Shown here: positions 41,164-49,646 of the stretch, in pieces
How the letters are laid out: each line of letters begins with the position of its first letter
Position numbering within the stretch: the first letter of the stretch is position 1
Assembly (NCBI GenBank): GCA_965238075.1
Contig: OZ250173.1
Span: 1,984,001 to 2,048,000 of the forward strand
DNA: 64,000 nt
DNA from: Candidatus Entotheonellaceae bacterium
Lineage (GTDB): Bacteria > Tectomicrobia > Entotheonellia > Entotheonellales > Entotheonellaceae
Reading direction: 5' to 3'
Notes under the pieces: model-generated
What the model was told of the DNA's origin: nothing
The model's input: only the letters and a program-made list of their open reading frames with translations
The model's database searches: none
Made by a program: the position numbers and the translations under genes

Positions 41164-41193
41164 CAAGCTTTGTCCCGCCCACCCCGCCGGCGC

Positions 41194-41952
41194 ATGCGCT
41201 TCCGGCCTTGCATTGATTTGCACAACGGCGTCGTCAAGCAGATCGTCGGCGCCTCCTTGCAAGACGGCGCGGACCCGCAGACCAACTTCGCAACCGATCA
41301 ACCCGCCGCCTATTTCGCCGACCGCTACCGCCAGGACGGCCTGCACGGCGGTCACGTCATCATGCTCGGGCCGGGCAACGAAACCGCCGCTGCCGCCGCC
41401 GTGACCGCCTTTCCCGGCGGCCTGCAGGTGGGCGGCGGCATCAACCCGCAAGATGCCGCAGCGTGGCTACAACGCGGTGCCGCCGGTGTCATCGTCACCT
41501 CCTACGTGTTTCAAAACGGCAAGCTGCGCCGCGACCGGCTGCAGGACATGGTCGACGCCGTCGGCGCCTCCCGCCTCATCCTCGATCTCAGTTGCCGCAA
41601 GATAGACGGTCGCTACGTCGCCATGGCCGACCGCTGGCAGATCGCCACCGACCTGGAAATCAACGCTTCCACGCTGGCCGAATTGGCCCCAAGCTGCTAC
41701 GAGTTTCTCATCCACGCCACCGCCGTGGAGGGCCGCCAGGCCGGTATCGACGCCGAGCTTGTGGCGCTGCTCGGGCGCATCGCGCCGGTGCCGGTCACGT
41801 ATGCCGGGGGCATTCGCAGCATGGCGGACGTCGAGCAGATTCGGGAGTCCGGTCAGGACAAGCTGGATTTCACGGTGGGCAGCGCCCTCGACCTGTTCGG
41901 CGGCACCGGGCTGCGCTACGCGGACCTGGTGGCTCTCAATCAGGGAAGGTGA
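41194..41952 (+). CDS. hisA: ProFAR isomerase, eukaryotic His6-type
   Basis: MRFRPCIDLHNGVVKQIVG, GGHVIMLG, LQVGGGI, LDLSCRK, EFLIHA, TVGSALDLFGG. Confidence 0.9.
   Translation: MRFRPCIDLHNGVVKQIVGASLQDGADPQTNFATDQPAAYFADRYRQDGLHGGHVIMLGPGNETAAAAAVTAFPGGLQVGGGINPQDAAAWLQRGAAGVIVTSYVFQNGKLRRDRLQDMVDAVGASRLILDLSCRKIDGRYVAMADRWQIATDLEINASTLAELAPSCYEFLIHATAVEGRQAGIDAELVALLGRIAPVPVTYAGGIRSMADVEQIRESGQDKLDFTVGSALDLFGGTGLRYADLVALNQGR
41734..41939 (+). repeat. Direct repeat copy 1 (hisA 3' end), left boundary of the island
   Basis: 206 bp; 11 mismatches to 45711-45916 by manual alignment. Confidence 0.95.
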
Positions 41953-42238
41953 GCGACAACAGGGAAGAGCGTACGGTTCTGGTTAAACCGTTCTGTCCTT
42001 TCGCATCAGTTGGTAAAACGTGAGGTTGCAACTCACTTCTGTGCCCCCCTTCTTTCCATCCATCGTTTCCTGCATCAACCCTGGGCATTCACCGTCACCA
42101 GATAAACTGACGTAACCGCCTTGCACTCGTGGTTGAACTCCGCGCAGATGGCATGGCGATCTCCACATGGGTTCAGCAGTCAATAGAATTGACAATGTCA
42201 CATATTTTTTCAGAAAATTTGACACCAGGAGGTTCCAG

Positions 42239-42808
42239 ATGAATGATGGCCCACACAGAAGCTTGCCGATGTCCCGCAAATGGAAGCGGTTTGCAGAACG
42301 CATCTATAACGAAGCGTTTGGTCCTGAACAGGCATACGAGGCGCTCTTGACGGCGCGGTCAGAGGATTGGTGTCAACAAATTCCCAGAAGCCTGGTTAAC
42401 AGAGTTCAGAACGTCCTGTCCGACGGTCAAACTGAGCTCTTCTGCAACCAGATTATTGAGAAACTTGATTCACTTCGGCAAGAAGTGGCTGGATACCGAC
42501 TCGCTGGTGTGTTGCTGGACTACGTTTGCCAGACCCTAGGGAGAGGAGTCCCAGGCGAGAATGCATTGTTGGAGGCGGCTCGTCTGCTCCTTACAGACCG
42601 CTTGGCGCGACGTGCACGTCAAGTCGAAGAACATTACTACAGCGAAGCTACCTGCAATCGCGCCACCGATGTCAGGCGGCGAATCGAAGATGCAATTGGC
42701 GGCCTGAATCTTGCGGCGACGGCTCGTGACCTTCTTGGCATCGTCGAAAATGAGCCTCCCCGAGTTTTCGCGAAACAGACAGGCCTTGACGATGGGGTGC
42801 TCCTCTGA
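42239..42808 (+). CDS. Hypothetical helical protein, first gene of the QueC-like operon
   Basis: AGGAGG RBS before ATG 42239 (MNDGPHRSLPM); TGATG overlap with the next gene. Confidence 0.8.
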   Translation: MNDGPHRSLPMSRKWKRFAERIYNEAFGPEQAYEALLTARSEDWCQQIPRSLVNRVQNVLSDGQTELFCNQIIEKLDSLRQEVAGYRLAGVLLDYVCQTLGRGVPGENALLEAARLLLTDRLARRARQVEEHYYSEATCNRATDVRRRIEDAIGGLNLAATARDLLGIVENEPPRVFAKQTGLDDGVLL

Positions 42809-43931
42809 TGGGGAATGCAGAAGCATCGAACTTAGCGTTGTCACAGTATTGCGTCGATGTCGTGGAATTTGGAACCCCCGCCCCTCGTCATTGGATTCGA
42901 TGCGAAATCGGCAAGGACCTCCTATTTGATACGGATAGGCTCCAAACCTATTGCCTCACGAAATGGGATGAACGGCTGTACGATCTGCTGGTCGTTGCCG
43001 CGTCCGTGCAGTTTTGCGACCGAACGAAGGCACGGCCTTCGACCGGGTGGGGCCGAAATTTTGTAGTACGGATTAAGGACCTATTGGGGATTCCTCGCTC
43101 CCCTTCGCTTCCGTCCCTTTTCAGGTTCGGTTTGAGAGTAAACGTTCTGTTGAAACCAGCGCACGGTCCCGAGGCTTCAAGTTTGCAGTGCTAAGTGGTA
43201 TCGCAGCTTATCTGTCAGGAGCCAAAATGGTCATTATGCCCGAGAGTGGGCAGGGCGCCTTGGGACCGAGTCTCGTGCCGGTTGGCCAAGCGTACGAGGA
43301 CTATCGGAATCACCCCTTATTCACTGATCGTATGACGGTCTTTCTCTCAGCCCTTCTCGGTCATGAGGTTTGCTTTACGTATCCTCGCCTTTGGCACACC
43401 AAAGCGGAGACGCTCGCTGAATTCGTGACCAAGTGCCCAGACGGCCCAAATTGGGCTCAAACTCGCTCTTGCTGGCAGAATCAAAGGCACGTTTCCGTAT
43501 CCGGCACGATGCGACAGTGCGGCATCTGCGCGGCGTGTATGCTCCGGCGTATGAGCGCCCACGCAGCAGGTCTCACGGAGTGCAGACAATCCTATGTCTG
43601 GGAGGATTTGACTGTGGCTCGATACGAAGACGGTGCCGCCGCTTCGTATGGAAACAGGGAGCCGAGGGGCGCAATGCATGAATACGCAATTGCCGGAACG
43701 CTTCATCTCGATCACTTGGCGAGCGTTCTGCAATCCTCGGCAAACCAAGCCGGTCTTTCTCGACAAGTTTTTCTGTTGAGCCGTTCCCGGGGACTCACTG
43801 AAGAGAAAGTTCGAGCAAAACTGCACCGGCTAATCAGGCAACACGCAAAGGAGTGGAGAGGTTTTGTCGACTCCCTGGGGCCTAAGTCGTTTGTAACCCA
43901 GTGGATTGGGAGGGGAGAGGGGCATGTCTGA
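42808..43931 (+). pseudogene. QueC (7-cyano-7-deazaguanine synthase)-like protein of the QatC/Cap9 type, broken near 43075
   Basis: N-part YDLLVVAASVQFCDR...GWGRNF (frame of 42808). C-part ETSARSRGFKF...HPLF...TKAE...TRSCW...QCGICAACMLRRMS (frame of 43188, open from 43077). No PP-loop SGGxDS-like motif in either piece. Confidence 0.8.
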
Positions 43932-45096
43932 GGAGGGGTTGAATCCCATTGAGATTGGTAGGCGTCTGCGGATTGCGCGTGAAACGGCCGACATGACGCA
44001 GGCACATGCAGCCGCCAGTATCAACGTGGCGCGCACGACGCTGGTGGCCATGGAGAAAGGACAGCGCGCCGTTCGCACCGCTGAACTTCTGCCGTTGGCC
44101 AAGTTGTACGAGACGTCGGTCAACGCGTTGCTGCGCCGTGAGTCCGTTTATGTTGACCTTGTGCCTCGTTTTCGGAAACTGCCCGCGTGCAAGGAAGAGT
44201 CATCCGACGAAGCAGCCAGAGTGCTGGAAGCCCTTGTGCAGGCCGAAGTGGAACTGGAAAACCTGCTCGGTGTCATTCGTCCCCGGAACTACCCTCCACA
44301 ACGACCTCTCATGCCGGGCGATGTGCGGACTCAGGCCGAAAATGACGCGACCGAACTCCGCCACAAGCTCGGCCTGGGCTTGGCGCCGGTGCATGACGTG
44401 ACGAGTCTCTTGGAACTCGACCTTGGCATTCGCGTTTATATCCGGCGGCTTGACGCCCGTGTATCGGGATTGTTCGCCTATGATGAGCAGGTTGGCGCGT
44501 GCATATTGCTGAATGCCAATCACCCACGCGAACGCCGAGCACAAAGCGCGGCGCATGAACTGGGGCATTTTGTTTCAAGCCGCCAAGCACCCGAAGTGCT
44601 GTATGGCGACGGCCGAGAAAACTCGCGCGAGGAACGGTACGCCATTGCGTTCGCACGAGCCTTTCTGACGCCGGCACGGACGGTTATGCAGAGATTCCGG
44701 GACGTAACGCAAGGGGCGTCCCACCTGACGCGGCGTCACGTCATTCTACTTGCGCACGCCTTTGGCGTATCGCGTGAAGCCATGGTCCGGCGGTTCGAAG
44801 AACTCAGTCTGACCAAATCGGGGACCTGGGATTGGTTTGAGGGGAATGGCGGCATCACGAACGAACAGGCGAAGCAGGTGCTCGGGGATACGGCGGTTGT
44901 GGACCCGATTGATGCGAAGAGTCCAACGACGCTTCGTCTAAGCCTGTTGGCTGCTGAGGCATGGCGACAAGAACTGCTCGGCGAGGGGCAGCTTGCCCGC
45001 CTGTTGCGTCTGGATCGAGTTCAGTTGCGCGAAATTCTGGATGGGGTGGAGGTAGAAGGAGGCGACACGGATGGAGCGCCAAAGCTGCCTCACTGA
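43924..45096 (+). CDS. XRE-HTH fused to an ImmA/IrrE-family metallopeptidase
   Basis: IGRRLRIARE..MTQ..AA..ART..MEKGQR HTH; LLNANHPRERRAQSAAHELGH (HExxH); FGVSREAMVRR. Confidence 0.92.
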   Translation: MSEEGLNPIEIGRRLRIARETADMTQAHAAASINVARTTLVAMEKGQRAVRTAELLPLAKLYETSVNALLRRESVYVDLVPRFRKLPACKEESSDEAARVLEALVQAEVELENLLGVIRPRNYPPQRPLMPGDVRTQAENDATELRHKLGLGLAPVHDVTSLLELDLGIRVYIRRLDARVSGLFAYDEQVGACILLNANHPRERRAQSAAHELGHFVSSRQAPEVLYGDGRENSREERYAIAFARAFLTPARTVMQRFRDVTQGASHLTRRHVILLAHAFGVSREAMVRRFEELSLTKSGTWDWFEGNGGITNEQAKQVLGDTAVVDPIDAKSPTTLRLSLLAAEAWRQELLGEGQLARLLRLDRVQLREILDGVEVEGGDTDGAPKLPH

Positions 45097-45682
45097 TCGG
45101 ACGGTCCCCGTTGTCGCCGATACAAGCGTGTTGATCAATCTGAATGCCACGAAGTATGCCGAAACCATTCTGGATGCCTTGCCCAATCCATTCCTTGTTG
45201 TATCAGAGGTCATTCTGGAGCTCAAAAGCGGCGTGCAAGCCGGCCGGGACGACGCTGCCGCGGTCGACGCATGGCATGCGTCGGGACAAGTACAATTCGT
45301 GCAGCTTGGCGTCACTGGGATGAAGCATTTTGCCAGCCTCGTCTCCGGCTCCGTTGCTCAAACACTTGACGACGGGGAAGCCGCAACGATTGCCTATGCG
45401 CTTGAGCTGAAACCCCACGCCGTCCCCCTCTTGGACGAGCGCAAAGCGAACCGGATATGTGCGGCGCGTTTCGTCGGTCTCGTAACGGGAAGCACCGTTG
45501 ATCTTTTGGCTCACGACGATGTCTGGGCAGCCCTTGGGTGTGTCCCTCTTGCCGACGCGATTTTCAACGCGCTCCACGACGGCCGCATGCGAGTTCTGCC
45601 ACATCATTTGAAATGGGTCGTTGACCTGATAGGTCCGGAGCGCGCGAGGCAGTGCAGGTCTCTGCCGAGATCAGTCCGTTAG
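45071..45682 (+). CDS. PIN-domain protein (DUF3368-like)
   Basis: VVADTSVLINL, V..E, LDDGEAATIAYA and LLDERKA acidic PIN residues; overlaps the IrrE gene. Confidence 0.8.
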   Translation: MERQSCLTDRTVPVVADTSVLINLNATKYAETILDALPNPFLVVSEVILELKSGVQAGRDDAAAVDAWHASGQVQFVQLGVTGMKHFASLVSGSVAQTLDDGEAATIAYALELKPHAVPLLDERKANRICAARFVGLVTGSTVDLLAHDDVWAALGCVPLADAIFNALHDGRMRVLPHHLKWVVDLIGPERARQCRSLPRSVR

Positions 45683-45710
45683 CGAAAGTGACCGCGACCA
45701 GGGGAGGGGA

Positions 45711-45929
45711 CGCCAGGCGGGCATCGACGCCGAGCTCGTGGCGCTGCCCGGGCGCATTGCGCCGCTGCCGGTCACGTACGCCGGGGGCATTCGCAGCATG
45801 GCGGACGTCGAGCAGATTCGGGAGTCCGGTCAGGACAAGCTGGATTTCACGGTGGGAAGCGCCCTCGACCTCTTCGGCGGCACCGGGCTGCGCTACGTGG
45901 ACTTGGTGGCTCTCAACCGGCGAAGCTGA
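45711..45929 (+). pseudogene. Duplicated hisA 3' fragment (direct repeat copy 2), right boundary of the island
   Basis: RQAGIDAELVALPGRIAPLPVTYAGGIRSMADVEQIRESGQDKLDFTVGSALDLFGG; no 5' part. Confidence 0.92.
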
Positions 45930-46057
45930 GCATCGGTTTGTCCTGGTTTCAGACACTTGCACGCCCTGCAGAAACGCGCTTCAATGCGCGCCGATTTGTG
46001 CGAGGCGGATCATGGAGCGGCAAGACCCGGGCACCGGAACGGGTCAGGGAGAATTCC

Positions 46058-47602
46058 ATGACGAGACGAAGATTGCCCATTGGCCTGCAGACCTTTCGCA
46101 CGCTGCGCGAGGAGGACTACTACTACGTTGACAAGACCGCCTATATGGGGCGATTGGTGGACGAGGGCACGCACTACTTTCTGTCGCGCCCGCGGCGCTT
46201 CGGCAAAAGCCTGTTGCTGGACACGCTGAAGGAACTGTTCGAAGGCAGCGAGACGCTGTTCGCAGGGTTGGATATCCACCGTCGCTGGGATTGGTCGGTG
46301 CGTCACCCGGTGGTACGCCTCGACTTCAGCGGCGGCGATTACCAGGACCCGGACGGGTTGCGCCGGAACGTGATGGCGCAACTGGACGGCGTCGAGCGTT
46401 GGGCGCAGGTGACGGCGGAGGGTTCGGGTCCCGAGCGGTTTGGTTTCCTGTTGGAAGCGCTGCACCGCAAGACGAGTCGGCGGGTGGTGGTGCTGATCGA
46501 CGAGTACGACAAGCCGATCCTGGATGCACTGGGGTCGCCGGAACTGGCGCGGGCCAACCGCGACTATCTGCGCAGCCTGTACGCGAACATCAAGTTTGCG
46601 GACGCGCACGTCCGCTTCACCTTCCTCACGGGCGTCAGCAAGTTCTCCAAGGTCAACCTGTTCTCCGGCCTCAACAACCTCAAGGACATCACCCTGGACC
46701 GGCGCTACTCGGCGGTCTGCGGCTACACGGAAGCGGATTTGGACACCGTGTTCGCGCCCGAACTCCCCGGCCTGGACCGGGAGCGGATCCGCGACTGGTA
46801 CAACGGCTACTGCTGGCGCGGCGCGGAGAAGGTGTACAACCCCTACGACGTCTTGTTGTTGTTCGACAGCCGCGAGTTCGCCGCCCACTGGTTCGAGACC
46901 GCGACGCCAACGTTCCTGGTGGAGACCCTGTTCCAGCGCCGGGTCACCACGGTGTCGCTCGGCGAGACGGTGAGCACCGCAGAGTTGCTGTCGGCCTTCG
47001 ACGTGGACCACATCGGCACCGAGGCGCTGCTGTTCCAGACCGGCTACCTGACTATCGTGTCGGAAGAAAATGTGGGCGGCAGGGCGCTGTATCGGCTCGG
47101 CTATCCGAACCGTGAGGTGCGTCAGAGCCTGAATGAACATCTGCTGCACCATCTGGTGCAGGATACGGCGCGGCAGACCGCCAACAGCGTCCGCTTGTAC
47201 CGCCTGCTGGAGGCGAACGACTTCGCGGCGATGCAGGCGTTGTTTCAGGCGTTTTTTGCGAGCATTCCGTACGAGTGGTATACGAACAACGACATCGCGC
47301 ATTACGAGGGCTACTACGCGAGCGTGTTCTATTCGTACTTTGCGGCGCTGGGGTTCGAGATCGTGGTGGAAGACAGCAGCAACCACGGTCGTCTGGACAT
47401 GGCGGTGCGAACGGGCGGTCACGTCTATCTGTTCGAGTTCAAGGTGGTGGAGTTGGCGCCTGAGGGAGCGGCGCTGGCGCAGCTCAAGGAGCGGGGCTAC
47501 GCGGAGAAGTATCGCGGTCGGGGAGAACCGGTCCATCTGATCGGGGTGGAGTTCAGCCGTGAGACTCGCACCGTGACGGCGTTCGAGGTGGCGGATGGCT
47601 GA
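46058..47602 (+). CDS. AAA-ATPase-like protein with C-terminal PD-(D/E)xK nuclease domain
   Basis: LPIGLQTF..YYVDKT, SRPRRFGKS (Walker A), VLIDEYDKP, WYNGY, GRLDM..LFEFK. Confidence 0.9.
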   Translation: MTRRRLPIGLQTFRTLREEDYYYVDKTAYMGRLVDEGTHYFLSRPRRFGKSLLLDTLKELFEGSETLFAGLDIHRRWDWSVRHPVVRLDFSGGDYQDPDGLRRNVMAQLDGVERWAQVTAEGSGPERFGFLLEALHRKTSRRVVVLIDEYDKPILDALGSPELARANRDYLRSLYANIKFADAHVRFTFLTGVSKFSKVNLFSGLNNLKDITLDRRYSAVCGYTEADLDTVFAPELPGLDRERIRDWYNGYCWRGAEKVYNPYDVLLLFDSREFAAHWFETATPTFLVETLFQRRVTTVSLGETVSTAELLSAFDVDHIGTEALLFQTGYLTIVSEENVGGRALYRLGYPNREVRQSLNEHLLHHLVQDTARQTANSVRLYRLLEANDFAAMQALFQAFFASIPYEWYTNNDIAHYEGYYASVFYSYFAALGFEIVVEDSSNHGRLDMAVRTGGHVYLFEFKVVELAPEGAALAQLKERGYAEKYRGRGEPVHLIGVEFSRETRTVTAFEVADG

Positions 47603-48499: not shown

Positions 48500-48632
48500 G
48501 CTGAGGTAACGGCCGCGGCATGGCTGAAAGCAAGAAAATTGATCGTCGCGCCGCGAACTGCCAGTGACCGCTTAGAGAGCAAAACGATGCGGACCGCAGG
48601 CCGCTCCATAAGCCCATACAGGAGGTACAAAC

Positions 48633-49646
48633 ATGAAGCACCGCTTCCTGCCGTTGCCGAACCAAGATTTAGCGGCAGCGGCGAAGGTTTTTTCCCGCAC
48701 ATTATTGGGCCAAATAATCGCGAAAGTCATTAGTCGCAGAGTCGGGCATGCCCGGGTTATGTCACGGATGACAAGTATCCTGGCCATTGTCAGCACGATT
48801 TTTTGTATCACGCAGAGTGCATCCGCCGAAGGACTGGAAACTCGGATTTTCAATGCGACGGCGGAGGAATGGAATACCACCTCAGTGCTCATCATGGGCG
48901 ACACAGAAATGATCGTCGTCTGCGGGCAGAGCATGAAATCGTCCGCTGAACGGTTGGCAAGAGAGATCCGGGCCACTGGTCTCAAGTTGAAGGCGGTGTT
49001 CTTAACCCATGCACATCTCGACCATTCACAAGGTGCTTCGGTTATTTTGAAGCATTTCCCGGAAGCAAAGTTCATCGCAACGCCCGACGTGGCCGCGCGG
49101 CAACGCGCGCGCATACCCACAGACGACGCGTTTTCACGCCTGATTCTCGGTCCCAGGGCCGCCGTGCCGTCTGTCCCTGCGGAGGATTATGAAGGGTCTA
49201 CACTTGAGATTGACGGTGAGATCGTTGAACTCTGGACCGGATTGTATGGAGACGCCGCCACCGCTCCCCCTGACGAACCCCATACGGCCCTTTATATTCC
49301 GTCCCTCCATACGCTGATCCCAAGCGATATCGTCTACAACAACGCGCACGTCAGCATGGGCGGCACGACACCGGAAAGCCGCGCGAAATGGGTGGCGCAA
49401 TTCGAAGATTGGCTGGAACGGGACTTCAATCTCGTCGTCCCGGGACACCAGCCTGCCGGATCGGAGCTGACTGCAAGGGGGGCGTTGACACATACGCGCG
49501 CCTACGTGATCGCTTACGGTGAGGAAGTTGAGCGCGCTGCCACCGCCGATGAACTTGTCGCTGCGATGATCCGCAGGTTTCCTCACATCAAGCATGAGAT
49601 AGCTCTCCGTCTTTCCGCACGCATCGATTTCAGAGGAGGTCAATGA
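48633..49646 (+). CDS. Metallo-beta-lactamase-fold hydrolase, probably exported
   Basis: THAHLDH (HxHxDH), SDIVYN..H, VVPGH; signal-like ILAIVSTIFCITQSASA. Confidence 0.85.
   Translation: MKHRFLPLPNQDLAAAAKVFSRTLLGQIIAKVISRRVGHARVMSRMTSILAIVSTIFCITQSASAEGLETRIFNATAEEWNTTSVLIMGDTEMIVVCGQSMKSSAERLAREIRATGLKLKAVFLTHAHLDHSQGASVILKHFPEAKFIATPDVAARQRARIPTDDAFSRLILGPRAAVPSVPAEDYEGSTLEIDGEIVELWTGLYGDAATAPPDEPHTALYIPSLHTLIPSDIVYNNAHVSMGGTTPESRAKWVAQFEDWLERDFNLVVPGHQPAGSELTARGALTHTRAYVIAYGEEVERAATADELVAAMIRRFPHIKHEIALRLSARIDFRGGQ

Follow-up and report, generated by a model that had tools for sequence, protein, structure and literature searches.

The locus described here has its closest described relatives in QatABCD, in type IV of the cyclic oligonucleotide-based anti-phage signalling systems (CBASS), and in the Rosmer toxin-antitoxin modules. 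The QatBC complex is reported to be the minimal unit of Qat defence, for which the conserved N-terminal glycine motif of QatB is essential (PMC13279940, PMC13376578); how QatC acts on QatB, and by what route this leads to immunity, was put as an open question in 2026 (PMC13279940). In type IV CBASS, the enzyme Cap9 is reported to join 7-amido-7-deazaguanine to Gly2 of the CD-NTase (bioRxiv 10.1101/2025.04.06.647259). Our subject is a set of four genes (g1 to g4; 42239-45682) in a stretch of 64,000 nucleotides (nt) from a Candidatus Entotheonellaceae bacterium (assembly GCA_965238075.1, contig OZ250173.1, positions 1,984,001 to 2,048,000), the whole of which we call the window. With moderate confidence, we read this locus as a decayed copy of a horizontally mobile four-gene cassette, most likely an anti-phage system of the abortive-infection type.

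Operons that pair a helix-turn-helix (HTH) DUF955 protein with a PIN-like protein have been predicted to be three-component toxin-antitoxin modules (PMC5499597). An ImmA-domain protein is reported as the Rosmer antitoxin and is associated with PIN-like toxins (PMC10440598), and Rosmer is reported to defend against phages (bioRxiv 10.1101/2022.05.11.491447). A survey of qat clusters gives seven forms, all of them combinations of qatA-D (PMC13434339). A survey of the PF06508 family describes QatC and Cap9 as its two anti-phage branches, with qatA/qatD in ~34% of QatC-cluster neighbourhoods; the text of its Supplementary Table S2 gives KAP_NTPase and TatD for the QatC cluster and has no PF06114 (M78) entry (PMC13329287).

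In the window, a 3.75-kb insert sits between a hisA-like gene (41170-41952; Pfam His_biosynth, PF00977, 1e-23) and an orphan duplicate of the last 225 nt of that gene. The two copies of this direct repeat, 93% identical in a repeat search, form the borders of the insert: the left copy (41730..41954) is the 3' end of the hisA-like gene and the right copy (45707..45931) is the orphan hisA 3' fragment. Both lie on the + strand, as do all window features described below up to the g4 stop. The GC content of the insert is 0.50-0.60, against 0.65-0.69 in the left flank and 0.62-0.64 in the right. Inside are four co-oriented open reading frames (ORFs) that overlap at all three junctions. The first, g1 (42239..42808), encodes a 189-amino-acid (aa) all-helical protein, a positional and predicted functional analogue of QatB. 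The second, g2, is QatC-like and broken: a 5' fragment in frame 1 (42808..43070; residues 1 to ~88 by alignment with intact relatives) and a 3' fragment in frame 3 (~43100..43931), which holds the zinc cysteines and a C-terminal helical extension, are separated by a deletion scar (43071..43099). The third, g3 (43924..45096), encodes an Xre-type HTH, an M78 (ImmA/IrrE, COG2856) peptidase and a C-terminal domain, and is RmrA-like; the fourth, g4 (45071..45682), encodes a 203-aa PIN-fold protein with a C-terminal helical extension.

The gene starts deserve a word. The TGA of g1 and the ATG of g2 (42808) overlap by one base. For g3, ATG 43924, with a GGAGG-like site before it, is the most likely start; the ORF lister has TTG 43906. 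A g1 start at ATG 42167, which would give a protein beginning 'MG...', was rejected because it lies upstream of the conserved promoter described below, and 42239 is the true start. In all 80 related loci that we compare here, g1 starts at the methionine of MSDGPH, with a Shine-Dalgarno site before it.

An earlier note on this DNA, made from its letters alone, had described four co-oriented genes with overlapping stops and starts, visibly less GC-rich than their flanks and bracketed by a duplicated hisA end; the ORF list and sequence, the base composition and the repeat search agree with it on each of these points. It had also seen the QueC-type zinc motif SCW...CGICAACMLRR in gene 2. The motif is indeed there, in the 3' part, but gene 2 is not one intact gene, being split between frames 1 and 3.

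Recurrence is what marks these four genes as a unit. A protein search with the 3' part of g2 gave 368 matches at E≤0.001, and identity to the query was 53-77% among the 120 matches listed. In a set with one genome per species, searched with six near-full-length g2-family proteins, 189 encoded g2 relatives were found and 80 loci kept. The window's proteins, run against these loci with tblastn, found g1, both parts of g2, and g3 in 80/80 and g4 in 76/80, with gene order and strand constant throughout; in the four loci without a g4 match (L008, L024, L029 and L066), the contig ends with g3 or shortly behind it. In most loci, g2 is a single open frame of ~450-475 aa and the g1 stop overlaps its start. 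Because the same order recurs across the 80 related loci, the arrangement is far beyond chance. Carriers include Acidobacteriota, Alpha- and Gammaproteobacteria (Burkholderiales among them), Verrucomicrobiia, Spirochaetia and Chloroflexota, and further Flavobacteriaceae, Binatia, Syntrophorhabdus and others. No conserved fifth gene was found when 781 flank ORFs were clustered, the largest cluster being present in 13/80 loci.

A reciprocal check covered 401 alphaproteobacterial genomes, searched with a g4 profile and then a g2 profile. Six of them (G001, G089, G116, G121, G167 and G273) have a strong g2 match (2e-140 or better), each with a strong g4 match ~1.2 kb downstream on the same contig. 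The sole other strong g4 match, in G376, lies at a contig start; a weak one in G051 (1e-9) comes without a g2 match, and five further genomes have weak QatC-like matches only (1e-13 to 1e-20) and no g4. Carriers of the cassette number ~6-7 of the 401 genomes sampled. That the four genes occur together elsewhere, one of the points on which the earlier note could have failed, is borne out by both comparisons, and the cassette recurs across many bacterial phyla as a self-contained unit.

How does the cassette compare with the described systems? As in QatABCD, g2 has an N-terminal extension, a PP-loop core, a four-cysteine zinc site and a C-terminal helical extension, and it shares the QatC motifs D..R..W.R, DxWxxxF, RxRxxxF, HP and P(x)4TK (motif list in PMC13329287). 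The partner gene lies directly upstream and encodes an all-helical protein with a conserved extreme N-terminus, and predicted contacts of g2 loop 250-257 and residues 384-416 resemble the loop and basic patch reported for QatC (PMC13279940). Unlike QatABCD, the cassette has no QatA, two partial QatA queries matching 0/80 loci; no TatD gene is part of the conserved set, and neither PF07693 nor PF01026 (TatD) is present in the 13 flank-cluster representatives scanned, QatD itself not having been a query. Further, no homology of g1 to QatB can be detected, its start is MSDGPH where that of QatB is MGTS, and the other two genes encode an HTH-M78 peptidase and a PIN nuclease.

Type IV CBASS likewise has a QueC-family enzyme and, as its partner, a protein with a conserved N-terminal peptide that is presumed to be the acceptor (bioRxiv 10.1101/2025.04.06.647259). 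The cassette differs in having no CD-NTase, Cap10 or Cap11 in a PADLOC scan of g1-g4, where the only CBASS-related matches are capP/capH-like and fall on g3; in its g2, which is a remodelled QatC type of ~460 aa as against ~185 aa for the Cap9 type; and in its candidate acceptor, Ser/Thr2 or Gly4 rather than Gly2. The earlier note's view that the genes match neither Qat nor CBASS therefore stands, given the missing QatA and CD-NTase matches.

With RosmerTA and the modules of HTH-DUF955 (COG2856) and PIN proteins, the cassette shares an RmrA-like g3 that fuses an Xre HTH to an M78 domain with HExxH, and a PIN-like gene that overlaps and trails the peptidase gene, as reported for DUF4411, COG2405 and PIN_14/20/26 (PMC5499597); an association of peptidase and PIN is also noted for node D25 (PMC10440598). 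It differs from RosmerTA in that the g3-g4 pair never stands alone in the loci examined, since g1-g2 precede it in 80/80 under one promoter, and in that g4 lies outside the RmrT, Pfam PIN and DUF4411 models (E≤0.01). CapH/CapP, ImmR/ImmA and DdrO/IrrE also couple an M78 peptidase to an HTH repressor of a defence or mobile-element operon, although g3 fuses the two in one polypeptide. The trigger of these switches is DNA damage or single-stranded DNA.

The affiliation of g2 is best judged on its intact relatives. These match the PADLOC QatC model at 5e-30 to 1e-38, and the family profile also finds crystal structures of QatC (chains 9vlk, 4e-29, and 9zee, 1e-25). On the NCBIfam QatC model (NF041925), which has a cut-off of 280 bits, the relatives in L045, L001 and L074 score 117.3, 141.6 and 118.8 bits; the window's 3' fragment, 77% identical to the protein P0001, scores 35.2 bits (6e-9) and matches PADLOC QatC at 2e-6. 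Invariant in the family are D59, G153, S156, C315, C331, C334 and C337, and also G332, R340 and R341. Residues aligned to QatC D63 and to the QatC PP-loop serines are retained, the PP-loop reading S-[D/N/E]-G-L-D-S (S151 near-invariant, G153 and S156 invariant) where 9vlk has SGGLDS. The QatC-specific motifs are found at D71..R76..W81.R83, D115.W117, R213/R215..F219, H262-P263 and P286....T291-K292, and the zinc site has the four cysteines, with CGxCxxC..RR, by which QatC is recognised. Much of this survives in the window's 3' fragment, namely ESGQG, HP, P(x)4TK, the four zinc cysteines and CGICAACMLRR. These comparisons place g2 in a family that is sister to QatC and distinct from both QatC proper and QueC.

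The same genome holds a second QatB/QatC-like pair outside the window (G000:C1 ~2207126-2209638, minus strand; L084 7126-9629). Its QatC-like gene is the genome's only other match to the g2 profile (5.6e-15) and encodes a 574-aa protein (PADLOC QatC 1.6e-48); the gene before it encodes a protein of ~260 aa that begins with MG and matches no family. No QatA or QatD adjoins this locus; ~0.9 kb downstream are a 77-aa ORF and a PIN gene (PF01850, 6e-18) of VapBC type. The C-terminus of the 574-aa protein resembles a PD-(D/E)xK motif by eye, with no Pfam support.

The protein encoded by g1 has no match in Pfam, PADLOC, NCBIfam (the QatB model NF041924 included) or PDB sequences, and it is no detectable homologue of QatB. 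It does have a large family of its own: a profile search of 1.84 billion representatives at E≤0.001 gave 975 representatives at 50% identity, 356 of them at 1e-30 or better, and among the 150 matches listed the lengths are 178-277 aa, mostly ~185-195 aa. The AlphaFold2 model of g1 (predicted local distance difference test, pLDDT, 85) consists of helices and a disordered tail (171-189). With this model, Foldseek gave no match in pdb at E≤0.001 (best 0.1), and VIA-align reached a best Z of 7.8, which is within the noise for helical proteins, with no QatB chain among the 50 matches listed; these results are silent on whether g1 shares the QatB fold. The best look-alikes in the ESM Atlas, clusters of DUF3849, scored 0.81, under the level of a lead.

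What the g1 family conserves is its N-terminus, MSDGPH(R/K)SLPM. In an alignment of 71 sequences that are otherwise 26-57% identical, M1, D3, G4, P5 and L9 are invariant and S2, S8, M11 and W15 near-invariant. The conserved codons use all synonymous forms across the 80 loci, which shows that it is the peptide, and not the DNA, that is under selection. The pattern [MV]S[DE][GD]P occurs in 132/150 representatives, at residue 1 in 124 of those; the other 18 comprise 5 with MTDGPH, 10 gene calls that begin from the internal Met11, and 3 other variants. Across the family, the first six residues read M-S/T-D-G-P-[H/Y/F]. Residue 2 is Ser or Thr, and the Asn2 of the window (MNDGPH) is seen in 0/80 loci and 0/150 representatives. 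The earlier note had singled out the glycine in MND-GPH: the DGPH portion is conserved, but the Asn before it is atypical of the family.

Two further observations on g1 concern its codons and its tail. The codons of the conserved serines, 2 and 8, are AGC or AGT only, never TCN, in 80/80 loci. The disordered C-terminal tail (window ~42782-42805) ends in a conserved G-L-D-D-G-V-x-L in all loci; its G, L and D use several synonymous codons, with a GGA/GGG GTG bias, which suggests that part of the conservation may reflect the Shine-Dalgarno site of g2.

We predicted the complex with the g2 (467 aa) and g1 (residues 2-189) of L045, a locus syntenic with the window copy, using family alignments and including ATP and Zn. 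The interface score ipSAE reached 0.89 in each of the three runs, and the best of 3 controls scored 0.00; the mark used for this score was reached by 116/157 solved complexes and 2/215 mismatched pairs. The runs agreed on at least 69% of contacts, with partner pLDDT of at least 76. On the g1 side, the predicted interface comprises residues 4-12 and 15. On the g2 side, it comprises 76-84 (D..R..W.R), 114-117 (GDxW), loop 250-257, 316, 334-335 (beside the zinc cysteines) and 384-416 (the C-terminal helices). The C-terminal tail of g1 is outside it. These predictions support binding of g1 to g2 with the N-terminal peptide in the interface. The earlier note had proposed g1 as a QatB-like substrate of the QueC-like enzyme and had suggested that a predicted g1-QueC complex be compared with QatB-QatC. 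As an analogy, the proposal holds (upstream position with overlapping stop and start, helical make-up, N-terminal peptide under strong selection, predicted binding to g2), and the predicted complex is confident, with contacts like those of QatBC; as a statement of homology, it does not, since none was found.

For the remaining two genes, the earlier note's description of gene 3 as HTH plus HExxH and of gene 4 as carrying the PIN acidic residues proved sound. The g3 protein matches HTH_3/HTH_31 (HTH_31 9e-9) and Peptidase_M78 (PF06114; 7e-18; motif HELGH) in Pfam, RmrA (2.8e-26) and capP (4e-13) in PADLOC, and, weakly, the NCBIfam 'spr1629 family repressor/antitoxin'. H217, E218 and H221 of its HExxH are at least 95% conserved in 58 sequences, and it is the best conserved of the four proteins: in most loci it is 57-76% identical to the g3 of the window, and for L045 the figure is 92%. 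We presume that g3 is repressor, antitoxin and sensor.

All 38 aligned relatives of g4 keep its acidic residues D17, E50, D101 and D122. Its AlphaFold2 model (pLDDT 94) is matched by Foldseek to VapC and other PIN chains with probability 1.00, template-modelling scores (target) of 0.55-0.70 and E from 3e-3. No Pfam model matches at E≤0.01, PF01850, PF14367 and DUF4411 included, nor does RmrT; the sole family match is the PADLOC candidate PDC-S70 (1.9e-9). Because the g4 profile found 0 matches among PDB sequences at E≤10, the PIN assignment rests on the fold. From its modelled structure, g4 is presumed to be a nuclease, the toxin and effector of the system.

One promoter/operator is conserved in the cassette, upstream of g1. 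In the window, a -35 box TTGACA (42189-42194) is overlapped by the palindrome TGACAATGTCA (42190-42200), followed by a -10-like GAAAAT whose last base is 42218, then a TGACA half-site (42220-42224) and, before g1, the Shine-Dalgarno sequence AGGAGG (42227-42232); in a promoter consensus scan, 42189-42218 scores 10/12. The same layout recurs in nearly all loci: a TTGACA -35 whose last five bases open the palindrome TGACAnTGTCA, then an AT-rich spacer with a TAnAAT-like -10, then TGACA beside the Shine-Dalgarno site. In 68/80 loci, the exact palindrome is found 46-52 nt ahead of the g1 ATG, and near-matching variants are present in the other 12. Elsewhere it occurs once in 1.1 Mb of locus DNA, and the window holds only the one at 42190. 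The half-site falls within the last 30 nt before g1 in 73/80 loci. As the sole DNA-binding protein of the cassette, g3 would be expected to auto-repress the operon through this palindrome. In five loci (L014, L016, L029, L047 and L067), a second, longer palindrome (TGTCAAGTTTT.TTGCAA.AAAAC.TGACA) lies ~10-45 nt upstream of the main operator and bears the same TGACA/TGTCA ends.

It is important to be clear about the state of the window copy. Its g2 runs in frame 1 from 42808 to ~43070 and then in frame 3 from ~43100 to 43931, the 5' open frame continuing in the wrong register until it meets a stop at 43194. Alignment with intact relatives shows that residues ~89-190 (~100 codons) are gone, including the PP-loop-like PFSDGLDS. 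L045, from a metagenome-assembled genome labelled Candidatus Entotheonella, is syntenic, with the same insertion and the same repeats and with flanks 95-97% identical. By blastn, 29 nt in the window stand in place of its 309 nt, a net loss of 280 nt plus a frameshift. The window g2 is a pseudogene that has lost its PP-loop. Because its own g2 is dead, the window copy cannot work in the way proposed below, and only the g3-g4 half can, to judge from the sequence, still be functional.

The insertion is common to the window and L045 and is therefore older than the separation of their lineages; the g2 deletion is confined to the window's own lineage. Both g3 and g4 are intact in the window, g3 departing from its family at Q132 and F297, positions that are at least 95% conserved. 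At the DNA level, the flanks are 90-97% and the remainder of the cassette 82-98% identical to L045, whereas 41890-42930 (intergenic DNA, g1 itself and the beginning of g2) is only 65-80% identical; at the protein level, identity is 57% for g1 and 92% for g3. Since this divergence is too great for decay in place, it suggests an exchange of alleles or an unusually fast change of g1.

Two neighbours of the insert also differ between loci. Right after the right repeat, 45938-47602 encodes a 554-aa protein with AAA-ATPase_like (PF09820, 2e-60) and PDDEXK_9 (PF08011, 1e-23) domains; it is 95% identical in L045 and, because it is missing from the other 79 of the 80 loci, lies outside the cassette. 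Further on, ~1 kb of window DNA (48632-49631) is absent from L045 and coincides with an ORF at 48633-49646 (337 aa), in which a HAHLDH stretch, read by eye, recalls metallo-beta-lactamase-fold hydrolases.

What computation establishes is that the genes are syntenic, which families they belong to, that g4 has a PIN fold, that the operator is conserved, that the N-terminus of g1 is under selection and that the window's g2 has suffered a deletion; the role in defence and every biochemical step that follows are what we infer. In an intact cassette, g3 would occupy both the palindrome that overlaps the -35 box and the half-site close to where transcription starts, keeping the operon nearly silent. 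The g1 and g2 proteins would form a QatB-QatC-like heterodimer in which, as modelled, the invariant g1 N-terminal peptide lies on g2. By analogy with Cap9 and QatC, g2 would be a PP-loop ATP pyrophosphatase of the QatC lineage that adenylates a carboxylate, 7-carboxy-7-deazaguanine, and would then join it to the N-terminus of g1. The effector arm would be Rosmer-like, with g3 as the HTH-M78 peptidase that serves as antitoxin/regulator and g4 as the PIN nuclease that serves as toxin. Infection would turn the peptidase on and end repression and neutralisation, and nucleic acid would then be cut by the PIN nuclease.

How tagging and toxin might be joined is a more tentative matter. We put forward, as a doubtful idea that is nonetheless worth stating, that the tag placed on the g1 N-terminus by the QatC-like enzyme is the switch of a protease-gated toxin, in either of two versions. 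In one, which takes up the speculation of the earlier note, the M78 peptidase would trim M-S-D from g1 and so expose Gly4 as the acceptor; this version fits the invariant D3-G4-P5 and the confident model contacts that begin at residue 4. In the other, tagged g1 would be the ligand or substrate that activates the peptidase, which would then free the PIN nuclease and de-repress the operon. If the idea were true, conjugation of a nucleobase to a protein would be a signalling step controlling an effector of toxin-antitoxin type, a logic undescribed for Qat or CBASS.

Several findings weigh against a defence cassette built on QatC-like tagging. The window copy is broken and at least five further loci are decayed (L052, L060, L067, L075 and L078), so the cassette must often be dispensable. 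A search of 50,697 phage records did not find the cassette, and 0/79 candidate stretches from IMG/VR contigs were confirmed as the cassette. In these analyses, what ties g1-g2 to g3-g4 is obligate co-occurrence and overlapping reading frames, and nothing else. The QatB model NF041924 matches neither the window g1 nor that of L045 at E≤0.1. Two genuine QatB genes that we fetched start MGTS and are located between qatA and qatC; tblastn with their proteins finds 0/80 loci, whereas the QatC sequences that neighbour them match 59/80 and 80/80 loci at ~30% identity, and hhalign of the g1 profile with a QatB profile built from just these two sequences gives a probability of 0.3%. The g1 protein also lacks the Gly2 acceptor common to QatB and CD-NTases. 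Intact g2 relatives score under the curated QatC cut-off (117-142 vs 280 bits), with a PP-loop that is S-[D/N/E]-G-L-D-S and not SGGxDS. Finally, the score of the predicted complex may lean on solved QatBC structures, and our own alignments and ligands depart from its calibration.

The alternative that survives best is that two independent modules travel together, a self-sufficient QatBC-like pair and a Rosmer-like HTH-M78/PIN pair that stabilises the island, with no signalling between them. QatBC alone is reported to suffice for baseline defence (PMC13434339, PMC13279940), HTH-DUF955 and PIN-like pairs are reported as stand-alone operons (PMC5499597), and in the window, as in L075, g3-g4 are intact while g2 is dead. 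Against this, co-occurrence is obligate in both directions, in 76/76 loci with room for g4 and in 6/6 resolvable contexts among the 401 genomes; all three gene junctions overlap, and the only conserved promoter/operator lies upstream of g1. We consider this account unlikely.

The flanks bear on another account, in which the cassette is not for defence at all and serves mobile elements as an addiction or regulatory module, an ImmR/ImmA-like switch with a PIN toxin, g1 being tagged for, e.g., stress signalling. Integrases or serine recombinases adjoin the cassette (clusters in 8 and 6 of the 80 loci), 35 plasmid records carry it (24 with at least 80% coverage), the window insertion has a duplicated target end, and ImmA-type peptidases are reported to regulate the induction of mobile elements (PMC10440598). 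The 13 flank-cluster representatives scanned include Fic/DUF4172, DUF6088, HipA, AbiEi, AbiEii, UvrD helicase and ArdC, together with tyrosine integrase, serine recombinase, MmeI-type and type ISP restriction-modification and a type I specificity subunit, which is the make-up of defence islands and mobile elements. One plasmid copy adjoins AbiE and AbiJ, its genes being annotated hypothetical / 7-cyano-7-deazaguanine synthase / XRE family regulator / hypothetical. Because the neighbours are mainly defence and toxin-antitoxin genes and not one kind of element, the conserved unit includes no recombinase, and the nearest characterised families, QatC and RmrA, are both anti-phage, we hold a purely mobile-element role to be decidedly improbable.

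That gene 2 is an ordinary queuosine-pathway QueC with unrelated neighbours, as its public annotation and a weak PF06508 match (19.8-20.6 bits, cut-off 22) might suggest, is scarcely credible given 13-17 bits on the housekeeping model TIGR00364 (cut-off 150.3) as against 117-142 bits on QatC, a length of ~460 aa with QatC-type extensions at both ends and QatC motifs, and the strict four-gene synteny. The earlier note's separation of gene 2 from tRNA QueC is upheld by the same scores. Public records (P0021, P0038 and others; plasmid matches H1-H15) label the g2 family 7-cyano-7-deazaguanine synthase (QueC), which, because its members fail the QueC models, is a systematic mis-annotation. As intact members fall under the PF06508 gathering cut-off, we suspect that the PF06508-based survey may have missed most of the family.

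Returning to the anti-phage cassette, is it already known? Neither PADLOC-DB v2 nor NCBIfam has a g1 model or a system composed in this way, and no description of the gene set was found in the full-text literature on QatC/QueC/deazaguanine, QatBC and Rosmer; a term search of the QatBC structure paper PMC13639016 turned up nothing about a peptidase or about other gene contexts. Within these sources, the genes are uncatalogued, as the earlier note had proposed, and its overall interpretation finds support as far as computation can take it: the four genes recur together, gene 2 groups apart from QueC and the catalogues searched have no such entry. The cassette looks like an uncatalogued anti-phage system that combines the QueC-family protein-tagging type of defence with a known toxin-antitoxin/defence module.

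For this genome, the locus is a decaying remnant. For the family, recognition of g2 would correct the mis-annotation described above, and the cassette offers QatC-type chemistry a second setting, one that is widespread and compact. It differs from Qat in ways that are useful: the acceptor peptide is another (Ser/Thr2 or Gly4), and the repressor, the peptidase and the PIN nuclease are well-understood types of part whose read-outs, namely cleavage, de-repression and toxicity, are easy to assay.

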